NCBI GenBank assembly: GCA_000004695.1
Contig: CM000154.2
Span: 736,001-800,000, forward strand
Reading direction: 5' to 3'
From: Dictyostelium discoideum
Lineage: Eukaryota
Length of the DNA stretch: 64,000 nucleotides
Under the pieces are notes generated by a model. It saw nothing but the letters and a program-made list of their open reading frames with translations, was not told the origin of the DNA and did not search any database. The position numbers were made by a program, and so were the translations under genes. Numbering within the stretch: position 1 is the first letter of the stretch; every line of letters starts with the position of its first letter. This document shows positions 36,980-51,560 of this stretch, piece by piece.

Positions 36980-37415
36980 TTATTTCTTTCTAACTAATTC
37001 ATTTAAACTTCTTTCTGTATCTGTAATTTGTGCATCAATATATTTACTTTGATTCTATATATGTGTGTGGTGTGGGGTATTGGTTAGTATAATAATTAAT
37101 TTAAAAATAGTATATATATTTATATATATATTAATAACATACAATTAAACCTTTAACATCTTCTTCATCTTTTTGAACTTGTTGTTTTAATTCAGTTTTT
37201 AAAGAGGTCATTGGTGAGATAACAAACATTTTACCAACTGCTTTATAGGTTTTAGTTTCTGATGATAATGATTCTAATTCATTGATTGTAATTAAACATT
37301 TCTTTCTATCATTTTCTGCAATTTGAATACGTTGTTTGATTATATTTAAACTTCTACTTAATGTATATAGTTTTTCACGTGTTTCAAAAAATGCTTGTTT
37401 ATCTAAAATTTCCAT
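36980..37415 (-). CDS. pfdn1: Prefoldin subunit 1 (beta-type), 115 aa. Exons 37415..37143 and 37054..36980.
   Basis: …ETKTYKAVGKMFVISPMTSLKTELKQQVQKDEEDVKGLI|NQSKYIDAQITDTERSLNELVRKK, compared with human PFDN1 …ETNMYEGVGRMFILQSKEAIHSQLLEKQK…. GTATGT donor. Exon sum 273+75 = 348. Confidence 0.75.
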
Positions 37416-37674: not shown

Positions 37675-38479
37675 TTATTTATTTTCTTTTACTTTTCCTT
37701 TTTTTGGAATTAATTTTTTACTACTGGTTTTCTTCTTTTCTCTTTTCTTTGAATTATTGTCAGACATTTCTTTTAATAGAGTTGAAGCTGGACCAGCAAA
37801 TCCTTGTTGTTCAGTTAAAGATTCTAATAAATTTTTTACAAGATTTAAATTTAAATCAACTTTTTGATTTACTTTATAATTTTCATTATCATCTTCATCA
37901 ACATCTTTGTCATTATTATTAATATTATTATTATTATTATTATTACTTTTTTCAATATCATCAAATTCTTTTGGTAATTTGGTTGACTCCAATTCAAAAG
38001 AAGAAGCAATAATCTTTAAATTTAATTCTTGATCCATTCTTTCCATGTATTGTTTTATGGTTGATTTCTTTAAAAATTCAACATATTGGAATTCTTTTTC
38101 ATCATCATCATCTTCATCTTCATCTTCATATTCTTCAAAACCATCATCTTCATCATCTTCATCATTTTCATCATCTTCATCATCATCTTTGTCATCACTA
38201 TCTTCATAATTATCAATATCTTGGTACATATCATCATCATCGTCATCATCGTCGTCATAATCATCATCATATTTGTTATTATCAGTAAAACCCTTTAGTA
38301 TATCCATGAATTTATTTGAATCAAATGAAATATTATCATCACCACCATTACCATAAGCACTACTTTTAGTTTTATTTTTAGAATTTCCAGATTTTTCGTT
38401 AAATTCTACACCATCAAATGAGGATAGTTGAGAAAGCATTGATTTGAATTGATTCGAAAAATCATTTATTAAATTTGAA

Positions 38480-38565
<86 letters not shown>

Positions 38566-38595
38566 TTCTTTAACTTCTTTTTTACCTTCTTTATT

Positions 38596-38628
<33 letters not shown>

Positions 38629-40026
38629 CTGTTGTTGTTTTTGACGATCATTTTCAAATTCTGTAATTAAATCTTCAAATTTATCAGGATTCTCTTCATT
38701 TAACCAATCATCCTCTGATTCAATTTTACTTTTATCAGATTCTTGTAAAATTTTTATCATTTCATCAACTGATTTTGAATTTGTAACTTGATCAATTAAT
38801 TTATAAATTGATTCTTCTTCTTTATTATTATTATTATTATTATTATTAATATTATTTTTTAAATATTGATTTTTAGCAATTAATAATTTCTCTTTATATA
38901 ATTTTGAACCAATAGTTTCATCATTGAAATAATTATTTGATTTTAATTGTTTTAAATAGTTTAACCAATTCAAATCATCATTGAATCTATGATATGAGGA
39001 TACAGAATTCCTTTTGGATCTATTATAAACCATCTCTAAACCACAAATGATTTTAACACCTAATGATCTTGAATCGTAGGTTGGATGTGAGGGTTTTGGT
39101 AATTGTGGATGAAAATTCTTTGGACTATTCCATTGTTGAAGTTTTAACATTGCATAAAGACAACGAGTGAATCTAATATTGGTTGTTATCAATTGACCTG
39201 AATTACCAAACGAGTCTCTTTCTCTACTCATTGGAAATCTTTTCATTGTGCTAATGGTTTTCATATCATCTGAATCTCTATTATAAAATGTTGTTGTTAT
39301 ATCTGATATTAATTGTGGATATTGATTTAATAAATATCCAATCTCAATTGGTATCGCTGCTAATTTTATTTGATTTTGATCTTTTAAAAAATATTCACCA
39401 TTATAAAATCTAAAAAATGAAAAAATAAAATTAATAAATCTATAAATATATATATATCTAAAATGAAAATGAAAATTAAAATAAAAATAAAATTACCTTT
39501 TTAATCTATTTTTTAAAATTTCATTAATTTCATTTGAAACTTTTGTAATAATATTATTTGAAGATGATGATAATATTGATAAAGCAGTATTTGTATCCAT
39601 TTTATAAGGAATTGTATCTAATTGAGAAGGATCCGAAGGTAATGGTATTATATGAATTTCACCATTTTTTAAGTAAACTCTATTATTAGAATTTGTAGGT
39701 TTTATCCATTTTGGTAATGCTTGAGCAGTTTCAATTAATATAAATTCACCATCATTGTCTTTAATTGAAACAATTAATGATTGAAACTTTTTTGTTAATT
39801 CTAATAAAATATAAACTATAAACCATTCATCATCAATTGATTCTTCAAATTTAGTATTTCCATAAAAATGAATTGGTAGTTGTTGTTGTTGCTGTTGTTT
39901 CTTTTTATGGTCATAAATTTTTAAATTAAATGGTTCTTTTTGCCAAATATAATCTTTAATATAATTTAAAATTAAATATTCTTTAATTTCATTTAATTTA
40001 TTTGTTATAGTGGTATTTTCGTTATT

Positions 40027-40057
<31 letters not shown>

Positions 40058-40221
40058 TTATTATTATTATAATTTATTAAATGAGTGTCAAATATTCTAT
40101 ATTTTACAAAATTAATTTCTTCTTTATGTTTATTATTTAAAATATCATCACCATTATTATAAAAGTCTTCGAAATTATCAACAAACTGTGGAACCGCTCC
40201 ACTATTTTTAGCTTTGTTCAT
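37675..40221 (-). CDS. ecd: Ecdysoneless (ECD / hSGT1) homologue, about 819 aa. Exons 40221..39497 and 39409..37675.
   Basis: [66 protein letters not shown] aligns with human [78 protein letters not shown] aligns with VTFTKCLYAQL. C-terminal VDLNLNLVKNLLESLTEQQGFAGPASTLLKEM aligns with [38 protein letters not shown] donor at 39496. Exon sum 2460. Confidence 0.85.
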
Positions 40222-40457
40222 TGTAATTATTTGAAAAATGAAAATGTGAAAAAAAAAAATAAAAAATAAAAAAAAATAAAAAAAAAAAAATTGAAAAATA
40301 AAATGAAAATTGGAAAGGGGGTACACCATTTAATAAATTTCATTAAAGGAAACCACAAACCCTTTTCCAATTTTTTCTTCATGTTTTAAATTTAATTTTT
40401 TTTAATTTATTGTTTTTTTTTTTTTAAAATGTGTTTTTTATTATTTTTAAAAAAAAA

Positions 40458-40564
40458 ATCATTTGGCAAACACACTTGTTTTAACATTTTCCAAAAAACT
40501 ATTTAAATATATATATTTTTTTTCTAAAAAAAAATATCATTTGACAAACACACTTGTTTTAACA
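40458..40564. promoter_or_regulatory. Two copies of a 30-bp direct repeat, ATCATTTG(G/A)CAAACACACTTGTTTTAACAT, 77 bp apart. They sit in the 413-bp divergent promoter between ecd (-) and the KAR5/GEX1-like gene (+).
   Basis: Copy 1 at 40458-40487 and copy 2 at 40535-40564, with 1 mismatch. Their non-AT-rich composition stands out from the flanking DNA. Confidence 0.5.
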
Positions 40565-40634
40565 TCAATAATTTTCAAAATAATTCCATACTCATAATAT
40601 ATAAAATTTTTTTTTTTTTTTTTTTTTTTAATAA

Positions 40635-41986
40635 ATGTTATTTATTTTAAAATTATTATTTTTATTATGTATTATTATTATAAAAATTAATGGAGAATTA
40701 TCAAATTATTATCAATATGAAATTGATAAAAAAATAAATGATAGAATTAATAATGGTAGAGAAAGTTTAGAATCAATTAAAAAGAATTCAATATCAAATA
40801 GATGTTTGGAGGAATGTATGGAAATATTATCAAATGGTTGTAAGGATATGGATGATTTATCAAAGAGTAGATTAGCAGTTAAATTAACCAATTGTCATTT
40901 GGCAAAGAGTGGTCACAAACAGTATCCATGTAGATTTGATATGTCAATACAAGATTGTACATCTAAAATGGATCAAATGGCATTCTCAACCTATACAAAT
41001 TTTTATATATCCACAGAAAATATTTGTTATTATCTATCACAGGAACTATTTCAACAACGTACAGAACAATCAATTAATAATCTTGTTACAAGTACACATA
41101 AAACTCAAACTGTGATTAATATATTACATTCAAAAGCAGATGACATCAATGAACAAGTTGACCTATCATTAAGCAATCAAAAAAAGTTATTACAAAATCA
41201 AAAACAATTAATCGACGATTTAGATAATAGTGCCAACACAATCAATGACATTGGTAAGAAATCCATTGAAATCGAACAATCCATAACTAAACAATCAAGA
41301 CAACAACAACAATTAATCGATTCACATGATCAACTTTCAAAACAATATCATGATCAATCTAAACAATCATTGGAATTAATTAATGAAATTAAACAATCAT
41401 CAGAAACAATGAATCAACAACAAAAACAATCATTAGAAAATCAAAATCATTTAATTCAATTACAATCTCAATCCATTCAATTCATTGAAACCATTGAAAC
41501 CATCACTGATACTTCATTATCAAAATTGAAACAAGTAATAACCTTTCAAGACCAATTATTAGATGGTAATAAAATTATTATTACAATCTTAAATCAATTA
41601 AATTTACTTCAAAATTGGATTTTATCTGAAGTTATTGATTTTAAATCAATTTATTTTTATATTTCAATTTTTTTAATTGTATGTAAATTTTTAAATAAAA
41701 AAAAAAAAAAAAAAAAAAAAAATTATTAACAAAATATTTTAAATTATAATAATAATAAAATGAAAAAAAAAAGATATATTTAATATCATCAACAAAAAGA
41801 ACCAAATCAACAAGAGTACCATTATTAATTGGATTAATTATTGATATTTTTGTTGAAAGATCAATTTGTTCAACAGTTTTATCATCTCCATCAACAACAA
41901 CATCAACATTATTTAATTTATTATCAATTTTATTCAATATTCCAATAATTAAGTTTATAAGGGAAAATTATTTATTATTTACAAAT

Positions 41987-42025
<39 letters not shown>

Positions 42026-42358
42026 GAATTCACAAATATTTTTTCAAATATTGATCAAAGTATACCAACATCAAGAGAAAATATTTATTTAATGATTAAT
42101 AATATTAGAATAATTTTTATAGTTTATTCGTTGGTTATATTATTTTCATCATTTTGGTTTTATAAAGATTATGAAAAAGACAACCACCAAATGTTGGTTA
42201 CAATTTTAAAAACAGTAAAAAAGAGTGAAAAAAAGTATAGCAATTTAAAGAATCTACTTTACGAAAAAGGTTTGCTCGACAAAAATGATAAAAGATTAAA
42301 AGATCATTCTTCTGTTGAAATTACTAAATTAATTGACTCTGTTGATGATAATAATTAA
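40635..42358 (+). CDS. Candidate nuclear-fusion (karyogamy) protein of the KAR5/GEX1/Brambleberry (Tht1-like) family, 543 aa. Exons 40635..41678 and 41774..42358.
   Basis: Signal peptide (MLFILKLLFLLCIIIIKING). Cys-rich domain CLEECMEILSNGCKDMDDLSKSRLAVKLTNCHLAKSGHKQYPCRFDMSIQDCTSKMDQMAFSTYTNFYISTENICYYL, with the LA.KL..C…G core recalled for this family. A long Gln-rich coiled coil follows. Exon 2 encodes two C-terminal TM helices (TRVPLLIGLIIDIFV; IRIIFIVYSLVILFSSFWFY). GTATGT donor at 41679, acceptor aaaaaag|ATATAT. The family assignment is an inference from domain order plus the CRD pattern. The gene model itself is firmer. Confidence 0.5.
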
Positions 42359-42419
42359 TAAAAATGGAATTACAATTTTTAAAATATCTTCACAAAATTT
42401 ACATTTTTACAAAACAAAA

Positions 42420-42456
<37 letters not shown>

Positions 42457-42802
42457 AAAAAATAAATTTACATTTTTTACAAAACAGTCTTCAATAAATT
42501 TTCGGAGATCAAATAACAATATACAATGTTTTTCATTTTACTTTTTTTTCTCTTATCTTTGTTTTATTATAAAAAAATAAATAAATTAAATAAAAAAAAA
42601 AAAAAAAAAAAAAAAAGATTGATCTAAATTTAACTCTAACCCCTTCCCCCACACAAAACTTTAATATTTTTTTTATTTTTTTTTATTTTTTTTTATTTTT
42701 TGATGCTGGTTTAACACCAACCTACTCTATTGTTTAATTTTTGATTTAATTATTATTTTTATTATTATTATTATTATTTTTTTTTTTTTTAACTTTGGGG
42801 GT

Positions 42803-42836
<34 letters not shown>

Positions 42837-43107
42837 AAAAAAAATTTTTTTTTTTTTTCTATATTCACCAAATAGTAAAACTTCTTTTTACTCCCAAGTT
42901 AAATTAATTTATTTTGGGAATTTATGGGTAAGTAAAAAAATTTTATTAATTTTTTTTTTTTTTTAAAAAAAATTAAAAAAATTAAAAATTAAAAATTTTT
43001 TTTTTTAATTTAATTTTTTTGGGAAAAACCCCCCCCATATATTTTTATTTCCAAAAATTTTTTTAAATTTTTTAAAAAAAATTATTATTATTATTTTAAA
43101 ATTAAGA

Positions 43108-43157
<50 letters not shown>

Positions 43158-43160
<3 letters not shown>

Positions 43161-45041
43161 AAATTAAATAAAATAATTTCAAATTATTTATTAATAATAA
43201 TAATTTCATTAATAATAATAACAACATCAACAATTGTTAATGGTTGTAAAGATGTTGTATTAGATTATACAGAAGATGTACCAAGTAGTTCAACTTCAAC
43301 ATGTTTAGGAACAACGCCATCAGTAACATTTAATAATTATCAGGTTTATAGTGTTTTCAAAATTTCACCAACACCAATTTCAATTGCAACCGATGTAAAT
43401 AAAAAGATAGTAACATTTAAATATGATACAACATATACTTTAAATTATAATGTTGGAGAAGGTTGTACAGAAAATACAAAAGCATTTAAATATGATTCAT
43501 TATCACCACCAGTTGCACAATTCACAGTTACTCAAGGAAAATGCTCATACTCTGAAAGTTCCATAACAATAACAAATCCTCAATCAATATCAGAATATGA
43601 ACTTAAATTAATTAATTCTACTAATGGTGGTGGTAATGGTATTATTAAATTAAATTCAACCAATCCAACTGCAACTATAAGTAAAAGTGGTCAATGGATA
43701 TTATCAGATTCTAGTTTAGGTGCTTCATATGAACCATGTGAAAGAGTGATTTCAATTGATCAACCATCAACAGGCTATCCAGAGTTTACAATTACTTCAC
43801 CAAGTTGTTATGGTAATAATGGTTCAATCGTTGTATCATCAGCTACTGCTTCAAGTTTCACTTCAATTACTTTAACAAATACATTGAATGGTAATTTAAT
43901 TACATCATCAAGTGTTGGTTCATTCACTTCACTTGAAAGTGGTAATTATATATTATCATTGACAAGTAATGCTTGTGGAAAACAATTAATTCCTGTAGCC
44001 CTGGATCCAATAATGCCAAGATTAGCATTCACCTACACCGATGTAACATGTCCATCAAAACCAAAGATTAAAGTATCAATTGATGATCCAAATATCCCAT
44101 CCACTGAAACATTTACAATGACAATCAATGGTATTGCATCAATTGATAATCTATTATCACCAATTATCACATTAGAAAATCAAACTTCTCTTCCATTTAC
44201 ATTCTCTTATAAAAATTGTTTATCAAGTTTTTCATTACCAATGAATCAACCACAAATGAATTTAGCATTTTCAATTGATAGCCAAGAGAATTCATTATAC
44301 GATTGCTCATTAACATCATCATCATCGTCGATTAATTTAAATTATGATAAATCAAGTATTACAGATTTAAATGTTAAATTAGTTAATGATGGTAGTACTA
44401 TAACACCAATTGATTCAAATTTAAATAAATATTCAATTAAAACTAATCAACAATTATCAATTTCATCATCATGTTATGTTAATCCATTATTCATTGAATT
44501 ACCACAACCTGAACCAATTATAAATGTTGATGGTGGAATTAATGGAATAGGTTGTTATGAGAATACTACGATTTCAGTTTATAATCATTTAGATTTTTCA
44601 TCAATAAAACTAGTACCATTAGATTCACCAACTACCTCTATACAATTAAATAGTGAAACTGGTCAATTTACAAATATTTATCGTAAATCTTATAATTTAG
44701 TTTACCAATATTGTTCAACATCAATTGAATCAAGTAAATTATTAAATCTTGCAAGTTCAACTTTAACTTCCTCTCAATATATTTTGGAACAAGATAGTAC
44801 TACAAATGATTTAGATTGTAAAACTGGTGGTGTTACTGTAAAAGCAACTTTTATAAAATCAGATTCAACAAAATTAGATCCAATTTATTCTTTTTTTAAT
44901 CCAAATCAAATTACACCAATTCAATTTAAAATCAATGATAATTGTATAATTGATTTAAATTTTAATCAAAATATTACTTTTAATTCAAATTGTAAGTATA
45001 ATACTAAAATTATAAATATTTATTTTAATAATGATTACTAA
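43158..45041 (+). CDS. N-terminal part (signal peptide plus repeated beta-rich Cys-containing modules) of a large type-I membrane glycoprotein gene. The frame is broken at about 45016-45041.
   Basis: Signal peptide MKLNKIISNYLLIIIISLIIITTSTIVNG. Recurring module motif C-x3-[ND]-G-S-I (SPSCYGNNGSIVV…). Confidence 0.6.
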
Positions 45042-47577
45042 TAATAATAATTGTTTTATGAAAATAGATTTAAATTTAAATAATAAACCAATAATTAAAA
45101 TTAATAATTCAACATGTTTATATTCAAATGATGGATCAATTGAAATTGATGGAAATGGTATTGATATTGGTAGTGTTTTAATTGGTGATCAATTATTTAG
45201 AAAATCTTCAAATGGAGTATATGGTGGTTTAAATGTTGGTAGTTATCAAGTTTCTTTAATTTATAGTACAATTAGTTCAAATCTATTTTGTGGTGGTCAA
45301 AAATATGATGTTGGTACCGTTACCATTGGTTCAATTGATTCTAGTTTTAATGTTGTTGTAAATTCAGTTTCAAATGCTAATTGTCAAACTAATGGTAATG
45401 ATGGTTCAATTACAATTGAAAATCCAACAACATTTAAATCAATTTCAATAGCAAGTGGTGGTGGTGGTGGTACAAATGTTGCAGTTAATGGTGTTTTATC
45501 AAATTTACAATCAGGTTTACATAAAGTTGATTTCGAAAGTATTGATTCAAAATGTAAAGGTTCATTCCCAGTTTTTGTTGGTAGTGCAGGTACAGAACCA
45601 ACTATTACTTTAAATTTAATTCAACCTTCAACATGTTATTCTGATCCTTCAATTTCATCAGTTTCAAATGTTATTGGTGATGGTATTCTCTCTATTGGTA
45701 TATTTAATTCATCAGGTGATAGTACGGAAGTTTCAAAAGTAATTGATGTAAATTCAAATAATTTACAATTCACAAGTCAAACTGGTGCTATACCAATTTC
45801 ACCAGGTAATAAAGTGTTAATCATTTATTCCGGTACATGTGCTTATAGAAAAACTATAACAATTCCACATACCGATCCATCATTATCATATAGTTCAACC
45901 TTTGATTACAATTGTTTTAATCAATTTGAAAATGGTATAATTTCAAGTTCATTAGAATCAAATTTCAATGTTGTTATAAATTCAGTTAAAGTTACAACAA
46001 CAACACCAACACCAACACCAACTACTACAACTTCAATTATTAATAACTCACCATTTGTAATTAATAATTTACAAAGTGGACAATATTCAGCATTAGTTAA
46101 ATGGAACTCAGTTTGTCAATCAGTATTACCAATTGTAACGAAATCAGTTAGCCCAATAACACCACCACCACCAACTTTTACAATTACTCATGATACTTCA
46201 ACTTGTTTATCAGATTATAACTATCATTTACAAATTACAAATATGGAAAAATATTCGAGCGTTTCAATTAACGGTAGAATTCAAGATGATTCAAATGGTA
46301 ATTTCTTTATGTTACCAGTTACAAGTGGTGAAATCATTTATAAAGATAAATCTACTCAATGTATTGGTAAGGTTAATTTCAATTTTGACCCTTTGACAAC
46401 AACCGCCACTCCTTTATCAACAAATCCAAACATTAATAAAACATTTGAAACATGTCATGGATCATGTGATGGAACATTACAAATTAGTAATAATATTTTA
46501 AATGAAACTTATTATCATTATTCATCAATTTCAATTAGAGAGAATAGTAAAAGATTTTTAACACCATTCAAACCATCAATGTCATCCGGTATTAATTATT
46601 ATGGAATTTCAACAACAAATTTATTATTTAATGAAATTGGTAAATCGAATCCATTTTGTATAATTTCAAAACCAATTTCATTTACATCTTTTGAACCGAT
46701 AATTGTAAATTTAAATGGTGAATCATGTTTAGTATTTAATAATGATACCGATATGGTTTTATATACAAATGTAACAAACCCACAAACAAATATATCAACC
46801 ATTGTAGTTTCATATAAGGGTAGTTCAAAGAATATTGGCTCCATTGAAGCTATGGTCAGAGTATTTGATGATGAAAATAGTGATATTGAATCATTGCCAA
46901 CTAGTTTAACTGCAACTTATAAATTGGTTAATACTAATACACCAAGTTCAATAATTCCATCAACAAGTAATAGCATTGCTGATTATGATAATTTATCATT
47001 TGGTAATTATTTATTAACAGCATCAATCACTAATAAACAATGTAAAAGATCTTTAGTACAATCATTTAAATTGGATAATACAACCAATAATGCATTCTTA
47101 ATTAAATTAGATACTACCAATTATTGTGAAGCTGTTAGAATAGTACCATTCAATATGAATCTATTATTTAACTATTATATCACAAATTCATCAGGTGGTT
47201 TAGTTTATCAATATTTAAATAAAACCGGTGTTGTAATTAGTGATTATTTGGATAGTGAAATGCAATACACTGTAAAAGCAGTTCAAATCAATAGTAATGG
47301 TGGTGATCAATATATAAGCTCATGTAATTTGATTGTCCAATCAAAAATTTGCCCTGTTAATAATGATTCTCAAATTAAATTAATCGTTGGTTTAGCATTA
47401 GGTTTATTGGTTGCTGCTTTCATCATAGTATATGCTATCTATAAATTAAGACAAAGACAAATTAAAAAGAATAATAATGAAAAATTAAAAGAAAATGAAC
47501 ATCCTCAAGAAGATGATGATCAAGAAGAAGAAATTGATGAAAATTATCGTCATCATAATATGATGGTTGAAATGTAA
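45031..47577 (+). CDS. C-terminal part of the same large type-I membrane glycoprotein, read in the +1 frame. It carries more Cys modules, a Thr/Pro linker (TTTPTPTPTTTTS), a TM helix (IVGLALGLLVAAFIIVYAIY) and an acidic cytoplasmic tail.
   Basis: It repeats the ORF-1 module motifs (NSTCLYSNDGSIEIDG, NANCQTNGNDGSITIEN, CHGSCDGTLQISNN). It has no signal peptide of its own and begins 11 nt before the ORF-1 stop. A single gene split by an indel or slippage fits better than two genes. Confidence 0.6.
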   Translation: MITNNNNCFMKIDLNLNNKPIIKINNSTCLYSNDGSIEIDGNGIDIGSVLIGDQLFRKSSNGVYGGLNVGSYQVSLIYSTISSNLFCGGQKYDVGTVTIGSIDSSFNVVVNSVSNANCQTNGNDGSITIENPTTFKSISIASGGGGGTNVAVNGVLSNLQSGLHKVDFESIDSKCKGSFPVFVGSAGTEPTITLNLIQPSTCYSDPSISSVSNVIGDGILSIGIFNSSGDSTEVSKVIDVNSNNLQFTSQTGAIPISPGNKVLIIYSGTCAYRKTITIPHTDPSLSYSSTFDYNCFNQFENGIISSSLESNFNVVINSVKVTTTTPTPTPTTTTSIINNSPFVINNLQSGQYSALVKWNSVCQSVLPIVTKSVSPITPPPPTFTITHDTSTCLSDYNYHLQITNMEKYSSVSINGRIQDDSNGNFFMLPVTSGEIIYKDKSTQCIGKVNFNFDPLTTTATPLSTNPNINKTFETCHGSCDGTLQISNNILNETYYHYSSISIRENSKRFLTPFKPSMSSGINYYGISTTNLLFNEIGKSNPFCIISKPISFTSFEPIIVNLNGESCLVFNNDTDMVLYTNVTNPQTNISTIVVSYKGSSKNIGSIEAMVRVFDDENSDIESLPTSLTATYKLVNTNTPSSIIPSTSNSIADYDNLSFGNYLLTASITNKQCKRSLVQSFKLDNTTNNAFLIKLDTTNYCEAVRIVPFNMNLLFNYYITNSSGGLVYQYLNKTGVVISDYLDSEMQYTVKAVQINSNGGDQYISSCNLIVQSKICPVNNDSQIKLIVGLALGLLVAAFIIVYAIYKLRQRQIKKNNNEKLKENEHPQEDDDQEEEIDENYRHHNMMVEM

Positions 47578-50783: not shown

Positions 50784-51560
50784 ATTTTAAAATGGAAAAT
50801 ATTAATTATAAATATAAATAAATATATTTATAACTCAATGTATTTATTTGTTGTTTGTTAAAAATAGAAACAGTATATAGAAGTAGTAGTGGGGAGTGAG
50901 TAAGTGTGGGTGGTTGGTAGTAGATTTTCTATATTGAGAGAATTTGTGTGAAAACGTGTGGGCTTAATTAATTTGGAAATAATTTATTTTAACGGTAATC
51001 ATATATTATGATATATGTATACTTGTGAGTGAAAGATAGTGTGTGAGTGTGGGAGTGTGGGAGTGCCCACTCACTATTTCTATTCATATTTTATATATTT
51101 TTTCAATAATGTCCTATTATATCATATTCATTGATTATGGTTGATGTTGTTATTTTGTTGTTTTTTTTTTTTTTATTTAAAAAAAATATAATTTTTATTT
51201 TTTTTTATTTTTATGGATATATATGATAATAATTTGTATTTACATGGTGGTGGTGTTGGTGGTGTTTTAAAATTTTTTATACTTATATATATAAAATTTA
51301 TATTTTTGAAAAATTGTATAATAGCAACAAAAACAAAACAAAATAAAAAAAAAAAATAAATAAAAAAATAAAAAAAAAAAGCATACAATATTAACAACCA
51401 CCAAATCTTGATGGTATTGGAAAAATTAAAAATTTTATGTTTATTTTATTAAACAATTAATTTTGTCTCTGCATATATGCATGTGTGTGAGAGAGTGTGT
51501 GTGTTTTAGTGTGTTTAATATATCTTTTACCCACACATCCATTTTTATTGATATGATTCT
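50560..51560. promoter_or_regulatory. About 1 kb G/T-rich, comparatively GC-rich island in a 2.7-kb AT desert. It carries many GTGTGGG/GGGTGTG/GAGAG motifs resembling Dictyostelium G-box (GBF-type) elements and (GT)n runs.
   Basis: Seen directly. Example motifs: gtgtgggtgtgtgtgagagatagggagagagtgtgtgtgtgtgtg, gtgtgggtggttggtag, gtgtgagtgtgggagtgtgggagtgcccactcac, ggtggtggtgttggtggtg, tgtgtgagagagtgtgtgtg. No ORF. Confidence 0.4.

Follow-up and report, generated by a model that had tools for sequence, protein, structure and literature searches.

DDB_G0287831, a highly probable GEX1/KAR5/Brambleberry family member of Dictyostelium discoideum encoded head-to-head with an ecdysoneless homologue

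The window analysed here is a 64,000-nucleotide (nt) stretch of Dictyostelium discoideum DNA (contig CM000154.2, positions 736,001 to 800,000 of the forward strand). It contains a plus-strand gene of two exons, 40635–41678 and 41774–42358, whose assembled coding sequence gives a product of 542 amino acids (aa) plus stop codon; the product is identical in sequence to XP_637084.1 (DDB_G0287831, UniProt Q54JR8) of D. discoideum AX4, which the databases call “hypothetical protein” or “uncharacterized”. Judged from its sequence, DDB_G0287831 is very probably a member of the GEX1/KAR5/Brambleberry family of nuclear fusion proteins, and its sequence places it in the GEX1/Brambleberry branch of that family. 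When the family knowledge is added, it is probably the D. discoideum orthologue that acts in karyogamy of the macrocyst zygote. A preliminary description of this DNA had given the product as 543 aa; the gene and its reading frame were confirmed, whereas that length had counted the stop. If the intron was retained, the frame would stop at 41729. The gene model is as follows.

40635..41678, plus strand: exon 1 of the GEX1-family gene DDB_G0287831, codons 1–348, open from the ATG to a GTATGT donor
41679..41773, plus strand: intron of 95 nt, GT..AG, about 95% A+T, phase 0, which splits the first transmembrane segment
41774..42358, plus strand: exon 2, codons 349–542 and the TAA stop; the joined coding sequence is identical to XP_637084.1

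Members of the family are defined by a signal peptide, a six-cysteine domain, one or two coiled coils and two or three transmembrane segments (PMC4291462, PMC7586128); the six conserved cysteines are the family signature for both Kar5p (PMC4291462) and plant GEX1 (PMC7586128). The KAR5/GEX1/Brambleberry-like identity, which had been proposed from this layout, is now carried by homology as well. Using hhalign, we compared a family profile of the Cys-rich domain with the Cys-rich domains of land-plant GEX1 proteins, including Arabidopsis thaliana GEX1 (AtGEX1, At5g55490, Q681K7); the land-plant alignment and the AtGEX1 sequence were taken from the supplement of PMC7586128. The two profiles matched with 99.6% probability (E = 6e-25), and all six cysteines were in register. 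With the Dictyostelium domain alone, the match to plant GEX1 still had 97.6% probability (E = 4e-12).

The Cys-rich-domain profile was also searched exhaustively with HMMER against 1.84 billion representative proteins. It matched 1243 proteins at E ≤ 1e-3, 697 at E ≤ 1e-10 and 83 at E ≤ 1e-30. Among the named matches, Nematostella A7RG01, “Protein brambleberry”, was found at E = 3e-42, and a sample of the matches contained “Protein GAMETE EXPRESSED 1” of Holothuria and “Gamete expressed 1” of Carpediemonas. The unnamed matches in the sample came from fishes, echinoderms, a brachiopod, a sponge, Balamuthia, Acrasis and Naegleria. Two profile searches in a word-indexed database contributed little; one added nothing, and the other gave just five short fragments. 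In a single-sequence search, the dictyostelid orthologues were followed by amphioxus proteins at E = 4e-29. When aligned, the sequences are conserved in three places: the Cys-rich domain, the surroundings of the first two hydrophobic segments, and the stretch behind the last segment. The nearest non-dictyostelid relatives in that search are thus Branchiostoma proteins (P0006 and P0007, 33% identity) and not other protists; their nearness is probably due to a domain that has evolved slowly in those lineages.

A match to the Pfam Tht1/KAR5 model (PF04163) had been set beforehand as a test of the identity. In the Pfam scan, the DDB_G0287831 protein has no PF04163 match even at E ≤ 10, and at the same threshold the match is absent from the dictyostelid and amphioxus homologues as well. 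The model also misses ten further diverse members, including the Nematostella protein that UniProt calls brambleberry and the cluster representative of Holothuria “GAMETE EXPRESSED 1”, as well as nine land-plant GEX1 proteins scanned by their Cys-rich domains, the characterised AtGEX1 among them. Because PF04163 fails on AtGEX1 and on named Brambleberry and GEX1 proteins, its negative result on the Dictyostelium protein is uninformative as a refutation. The model is fungal-restricted and does not reach the non-fungal members. This blindness is a modest addition to what is known; it makes PF04163 unusable for presence/absence scoring outside fungi, which bears on published “absent” calls such as that for Cochliopodium.

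The predicted layout of the protein agrees with the family plan. For residues 1–19 the Kyte-Doolittle mean is 2.55, and a polar stretch comes next; judged by hydropathy, this segment is consistent with a predicted signal peptide, and an N-terminal hydrophobic segment is found in most family homologues. Seven cysteines fall in the stretch of residues 57–131 (57, 61, 69, 87, 99, 108 and 131), and exactly six of them, C57, C69, C87, C99, C108 and C131, are invariant in diverse family alignments of 40 and 46 sequences. In the AlphaFold2 model, the Cys-rich domain is an all-helical, five-helix bundle with a predicted local distance difference test (pLDDT) score of 93.4, and continuous helices run through residues 114–234 and 244–353. 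The hydrophobic periodicity of 3.5 residues across residues 136–330 has a power higher than that of all 2000 shuffles. The order of signal peptide, Cys-rich domain and coiled coil, as given in the preliminary description, was borne out by these observations.

40635..40694, plus strand: predicted signal peptide, residues 1 to about 20, MLFILKLLFLLCIIIIKING (from the hydropathy of residues 1–19)
40716..41114, plus strand: Cys-rich domain, residues 28–160 (profile search, invariant cysteines, hhalign against plant GEX1, AlphaFold2)
41040..41624, plus strand: long heptad-periodic, coiled-coil-like helical region, residues ~136–330, about 200 aa (AlphaFold2 helices and periodicity)
41634..41884, plus strand: hairpin of the first and second transmembrane segments (TM1-loop-TM2), residues 334–385, across the intron (hydropathy and the YLxTSTxRTxxAR...ER motif)
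41885..42082, plus strand: loop residues 386–451, mostly a dictyostelid-specific Ser/Thr-rich insert (alignment occupancy, pLDDT)
42083..42160, plus strand: third conserved transmembrane segment, residues 452–477, with R460 invariant (family alignment hydropathy)
42161..42217, plus strand: juxtamembrane motif YKDYEKDNHQMLVTILKTV, residues 478–496, conserved across the family and matching RDYEVLNHQILLRLVDKV of AtGEX1

The C-terminal part was described earlier as two transmembrane helices. The membrane anchor is present, but the number has to be corrected, as three hydrophobic segments (residues 336–355, 361–380 and 456–475) are conserved across 46 family members with full alignment occupancy. 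The family-wide mean hydropathy of the first two is 1.84 and 1.78, respectively, and the three-segment anchor is the GEX1 pattern. One weaker hydrophobic segment, residues 392–410, sits within the dictyostelid-specific insert; the insert covers residues ~386–440 with an alignment occupancy below 0.4 and ends at about residue 440–445, and pLDDT falls below 50 at residues 421–445.

In addition to the Cys-rich domain, the membrane region of the family carries conserved motifs. The 46 family sequences were chosen by the Cys-rich domain only; the membrane motifs are conserved all the same, and they span dictyostelids, animals (cnidarians and amphioxus), heteroloboseans and Arabidopsis. In the TM1-TM2 hairpin motif YLxTSTxRTxxAR...ER, R362 is invariant (46/46) and E376 is present in 45/46 sequences; E332 is near-invariant, and the longer family motif around the hairpin reads LGE...FY...YLxTSTxRTxxAR...ER. 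R460 of the third segment is found in 46/46 sequences, and D480 of the juxtamembrane motif YKDY-x3-N-x2-LL in 44/46. At the juxtamembrane position, Dictyostelium has KDYEKDNHQMLVTILKTV where AtGEX1 has RDYEVLNHQILLRLVDKV, and BLASTP against the AtGEX1 C-terminus, a single comparison, gave 10 identical residues out of 24 (E = 2e-4). In Kar5p, high conservation is confined to the Cys-rich domain (PMC4291462). The family-wide membrane-anchor motifs are a modest addition; the Kar5p literature stresses that domain alone.

These motifs also bear on the view that the resemblance is one of layout only, an unrelated coiled-coil membrane protein of the secretory pathway having imitated the family by chance. 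We considered this view and rejected it; the probability that remains for it is very small. It does not account for the hhalign match with plant GEX1, in which the six cysteines align, for the 697 homologues at E ≤ 1e-10, which include named Brambleberry and GEX1 proteins, or for the conservation of membrane-anchor motifs in sequences picked by another domain.

Compared to the characterised members, membership of DDB_G0287831 in the family comes with differences in detail. Like AtGEX1, the Dictyostelium protein contains a probable signal peptide, the Cys-rich domain, coiled coils and three predicted transmembrane segments in the same order, and the two share the juxtamembrane motif (RDYEVLNHQILL compared to KDYEKDNHQMLV). 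The six-cysteine domain is common to Dictyostelium and land-plant GEX1, yet its identity to the plant domain is just ~26%, and plant GEX1 has two additional residues between C2 and C3 and one additional residue between C3 and C4. Different from plant GEX1, the helical region of the Dictyostelium protein is longer and Q/N-rich, a Ser/Thr-rich insert lies behind TM2 and ahead of the third segment (TM3), and the tail is short.

Animal Brambleberry homologues, from amphioxus and Nematostella at the E-values given above, are the nearest non-dictyostelid relatives found, and fish homologues are also among the Cys-rich profile matches. Animal homologues and Dictyostelium share the Cys-rich domain, the TM1-TM2 hairpin and the KDY motif. 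For zebrafish Brambleberry (Bmb), likened here by description, two transmembrane segments are described (PMC7586128), compared to three in the Dictyostelium protein; Bmb serves pronuclear and karyomere fusion in embryos with nuclear envelope breakdown. Saccharomyces cerevisiae Kar5p has the same described plan, with a signal peptide, coiled coils and C-terminal transmembrane segments, and is mostly lumenal; its six essential conserved cysteines extend from C56 through C141, compared to C57 through C131 in Dictyostelium (PMC4291462). Kar5p has two transmembrane segments, whereas the Dictyostelium protein has three hydrophobic segments. The model for S. cerevisiae Kar5p and Schizosaccharomyces pombe Tht1, PF04163, is the one that gave no match to the Dictyostelium protein at E ≤ 10. 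The relationship of Kar5/Tht1 to GEX1/Brambleberry reportedly goes back to Abrams 2012 and Ning 2013, as cited in PMC7586128 and PMC4291462. The protist members, GEX1 of Chlamydomonas reinhardtii and Plasmodium berghei, likened by description, offer the best functional analogy for a protist zygote; unlike in those systems, Dictyostelium zygotes come from the macrocyst cycle.

The known members suggest what the Dictyostelium protein may do. Kar5p lies mostly in the lumen, occurs in both nuclear membranes and is required once the outer membrane has fused, and Brambleberry forms puncta at karyomere fusion sites (PMC4291462). GEX1 of Chlamydomonas, Plasmodium and Arabidopsis is a gamete nuclear-envelope protein, expressed in the sexual stage and required for reproduction (PMC7586128). 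In the tagged AtGEX1, the tag was inserted behind the signal peptide (PMC7586128). By the positive-inside rule and by comparison with the family, the Cys-rich domain and the coiled coil would be directed by the signal peptide into the lumen of the endoplasmic reticulum (ER) or the perinuclear space, and two basic parts, the TM1-TM2 loop (STKRTKSTR, containing the invariant R362) and the C-terminal tail, would lie on the cytoplasmic or nucleoplasmic side. By analogy with Kar5p, Brambleberry, Chlamydomonas and Plasmodium GEX1 and AtGEX1, the protein would work at the contact zone between the two pronuclei after HAP2-dependent gamete fusion, where it would complete fusion of the nuclear envelopes, probably at or after the outer-membrane step. 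The outcome would be the diploid nucleus of the zygote that founds the macrocyst. The hairpin and juxtamembrane module could provide a cytoplasmic or nucleoplasmic docking site for the fusion machinery.

The protein may be a true family member whose main job in Dictyostelium lies elsewhere, in other remodelling of nuclear-envelope or ER membranes and not in sexual karyogamy; candidates are the resealing of the nuclear envelope around mitosis, parasexual nuclear fusion and the handling of multinucleate cells. Brambleberry itself serves karyomere fusion in early cleavage besides pronuclear fusion, and in five dictyostelids the gene is kept head-to-head with ecdysoneless/SGT1, a gene of housekeeping type. 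We consider such a role unlikely, as loss of the family protein blocks reproductive nuclear fusion in every organism tested and its expression is induced in the sexual phase where this was tested (PMC7586128), and dictyostelids have a sexual cycle with pronuclear fusion.

A role of the GEX1 orthologue in macrocyst karyogamy remains the probable one, and several points weigh against it or against the family assignment behind it. Family members can act outside gamete nuclear fusion. We found no literature that names DDB_G0287831, Q54JR8 or XP_637084, and no expression data, sexual-stage data included, and no localisation or mutant data for the gene. Without a PF04163 match, the link to fungal Kar5/Tht1 rests on the literature. 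Where the matched proteins are called “brambleberry” or “GEX1”, the name is in most cases an automatic annotation, and the plant sequences are machine-read supplement text in which a few residues are misread or missing. Finally, two 30-nt repeats upstream of the gene, described below, are weakly conserved outside D. discoideum.

GEX1 is detectable in Dictyostelium genomes according to a comparative-genomic inventory (PMC6263441), and an Amoebozoa set with D. discoideum among its members was scored positive for GEX1/KAR5 (PMC5892394). The existence of the gene is thus already known to specialists; public annotation lags behind, and we found no functional work in the literature. The published Dictyostelium GEX1 is presumably the locus DDB_G0287831; only one D. 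discoideum cluster is present among the best 150 listed matches of the Cys-rich profile search. Of the syngamy genes, GEX1/KAR5 and HAP2 are the two with broad conservation, and they serve as markers of sex across eukaryotes. A locus for the Dictyostelium member offers macrocyst research a concrete knockout target for pronuclear fusion. Knowledge of the family as such is unchanged, and the promoter duplication described below is minor and lineage-specific.

On the other side of a 413-bp spacer, the gene is paired with an SGT1/ecdysoneless homologue on the minus strand. The Pfam model PF07093 matched the product of exon 1 of that gene at E = 9e-56 (profile positions 10–182, the N-terminal part) and the product of exon 2 at E = 6e-43 (profile positions 229–521, the C-terminal part), in agreement with the divergent pairing noted earlier.

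37675..40221, minus strand: SGT1/ecdysoneless homologue, 819 aa; exon 1 40221–39497, intron 39496–39410, exon 2 39409–37675 (splice enumeration)
40222..40634, no strand: divergent intergenic spacer of 413 bp, from the ecdysoneless ATG at 40221 (minus) to the GEX1 ATG at 40635 (plus)
Head-to-head pair, by locus: window 37675–42358; L001 3134–7734; L002 3120–7707; L003 57–4730; L004 2056–7207; L005 1216–6104

Five dictyostelid species were sampled, and all of them, namely D. discoideum (two strains), D. citrinum, D. firmibasis, D. purpureum and Polysphondylium violaceum, have kept the order of ecdysoneless on the minus strand, spacer and GEX1 on the plus strand. In D. citrinum, D. purpureum and P. 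violaceum, the ecdysoneless orthologue next to GEX1 matches PF07093 as well, and the genes that flank the pair vary among the species. Retention of the head-to-head arrangement could reflect a shared bidirectional control region. A broader proposal combines such a control region with a second ancient functional module of the family, made up of the TM1-TM2 hairpin and the (K/R)DY-x3-N-x2-LL helix; we put this forward only tentatively, as a possibility that is rather doubtful on present evidence.

The spacer contains two near-identical 30-mers, which were reported earlier and proved to be identical at 29 of 30 positions; no match of this kind arose in any of 100 shuffled sequences (0/100). At up to three mismatches, no further copy of the 30-mer exists in the window; a search for its 17-nt core found no more copies there either. 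The 30-mers belong to a longer direct repeat. The Rfam scan of 39800–43200 and the tRNA scan of the whole window gave no match, so that the 30-mers are not part of a known RNA gene.

40458..40487, plus strand: 30-mer copy 1, ATCATTTGGCAAACACACTTGTTTTAACAT (window match scan)
40536..40565, plus strand: 30-mer copy 2, ATCATTTGACAAACACACTTGTTTTAACAT (window match scan)
40424..40565, plus strand: direct repeat holding the 30-mers, 64-nt copies 40424–40487 and 40502–40565, spaced 78 bp start-to-start and 83% identical
40596..40629, plus strand: TATA-like ATATATAAAA, then a T run of 23 nt, which stops 5 nt short of the ATG (direct reading of the sequence)
40335..40371, no strand: another non-AT block (AAATTTCATTAAAGGAAACCACAAACCCTTTTCCAAT), in the part of the spacer next to ecdysoneless (alignment of three species, with two D. 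discoideum strains)

A second D. discoideum strain carries both copies (L003 2808–2841 and 2898–2931), and in this strain both copies contain the same 4-bp insertion, an additional ACAA (GACAAACAAACACAC compared to GRCAAACACAC). A strain-specific change common to both copies suggests concerted evolution, by gene conversion or unequal exchange. D. citrinum has a single copy at the same relative position (CATTTGGCAGACACTCTTGTTT), which has already diverged at several sites; what is left in D. firmibasis is a degenerate remnant, ~60% identical as judged by eye from the alignment. Since the duplication was seen just in D. discoideum among the compared species, it arose within D. discoideum; the pair is a young tandem duplication of ~78 bp specific to this species. 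As far as the sequences indicate, near-identity of the copies is best explained by youth or gene conversion, and not by demonstrated constraint. The idea that the 30-mers form a shared cis-element is not supported by conservation, given this restriction to D. discoideum and the fast decay in its sister species.

Dictyostelium promoters have a TATA box, which is followed by an oligo-T run before the start site. The stretch 40596–40629 is therefore a probable core promoter of GEX1, as predicted from this arrangement, and the 30-mers lie 30–140 bp upstream of it. This location suits an upstream element of the GEX1 promoter, and the CA-rich core of the 30-mers may be a candidate regulatory site for GEX1. 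A stronger version of the idea, in which the 30-mers are a functional two-copy cis-regulatory module that selection maintains for one or both divergent genes, appears to us doubtful. The position upstream of the core promoter speaks for it, as do the G+C content of the core (~30%, compared to 10–15% in the surrounding spacer), the recognisable D. citrinum copy at the same relative position, the 4-bp insertion by which both copies evolve in concert in the second strain, the CA-rich boxes in the GEX1-ecdysoneless spacers of D. purpureum and P. violaceum, and the excess of AAACACAC in the window. On the other hand, the duplication is confined to D. discoideum, while the copies of the two sister species have diverged or degenerated; recent duplication or gene conversion explains the near-identity; there are no further copies in 64 kb; and nothing ties the element to ecdysoneless, on whose side a different block is conserved. 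That block, 40335–40371, is better conserved than the 30-mer, being kept in D. citrinum and, in part, in D. firmibasis, and it is a possible candidate for an ecdysoneless promoter element.

AAACACAC occurs 7 times in the window, compared to 2.3 expected, and 0 of 100 shuffles reach 7. Its sites include 13251, 19726, 49221 and a close pair at 51499–51516 (minus strand). The spacers of D. purpureum and P. violaceum contain CA-rich or CACCC-type boxes, namely GGGTGTGTGTTTCC, AAACACACCCACAACC, ACCCCCACCCAC and ATACACCCACTCAC, which we take to resemble the C/A-rich (G-box) elements bound by Dictyostelium GBF.

L004 4726–4745 and 4868–4886; L005 4350–4440: CA-rich / CACCC-type boxes in the GEX1-ecdysoneless spacers of D. 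purpureum and P. violaceum

Just beyond ecdysoneless, a fragment of a prefoldin subunit (PF01920, E = 8e-10) is located at 37131–37415 on the minus strand. The prefoldin neighbour is also present in D. citrinum and D. firmibasis, and not in D. purpureum or P. violaceum. Downstream of GEX1, two long open reading frames of 627 and 848 aa occupy 43158–47577 on the plus strand; they are in different frames and overlap by 11 nt at 45031–45041. Together they resemble a gene of 1361–1446 aa that lies downstream of GEX1 in other species. Their product would contain an N-terminal hydrophobic segment, a Ser/Thr- and Cys-containing body without Pfam match and a C-terminal hydrophobic segment, which is probably transmembrane; the junction between the two frames is a candidate short intron or frameshift.

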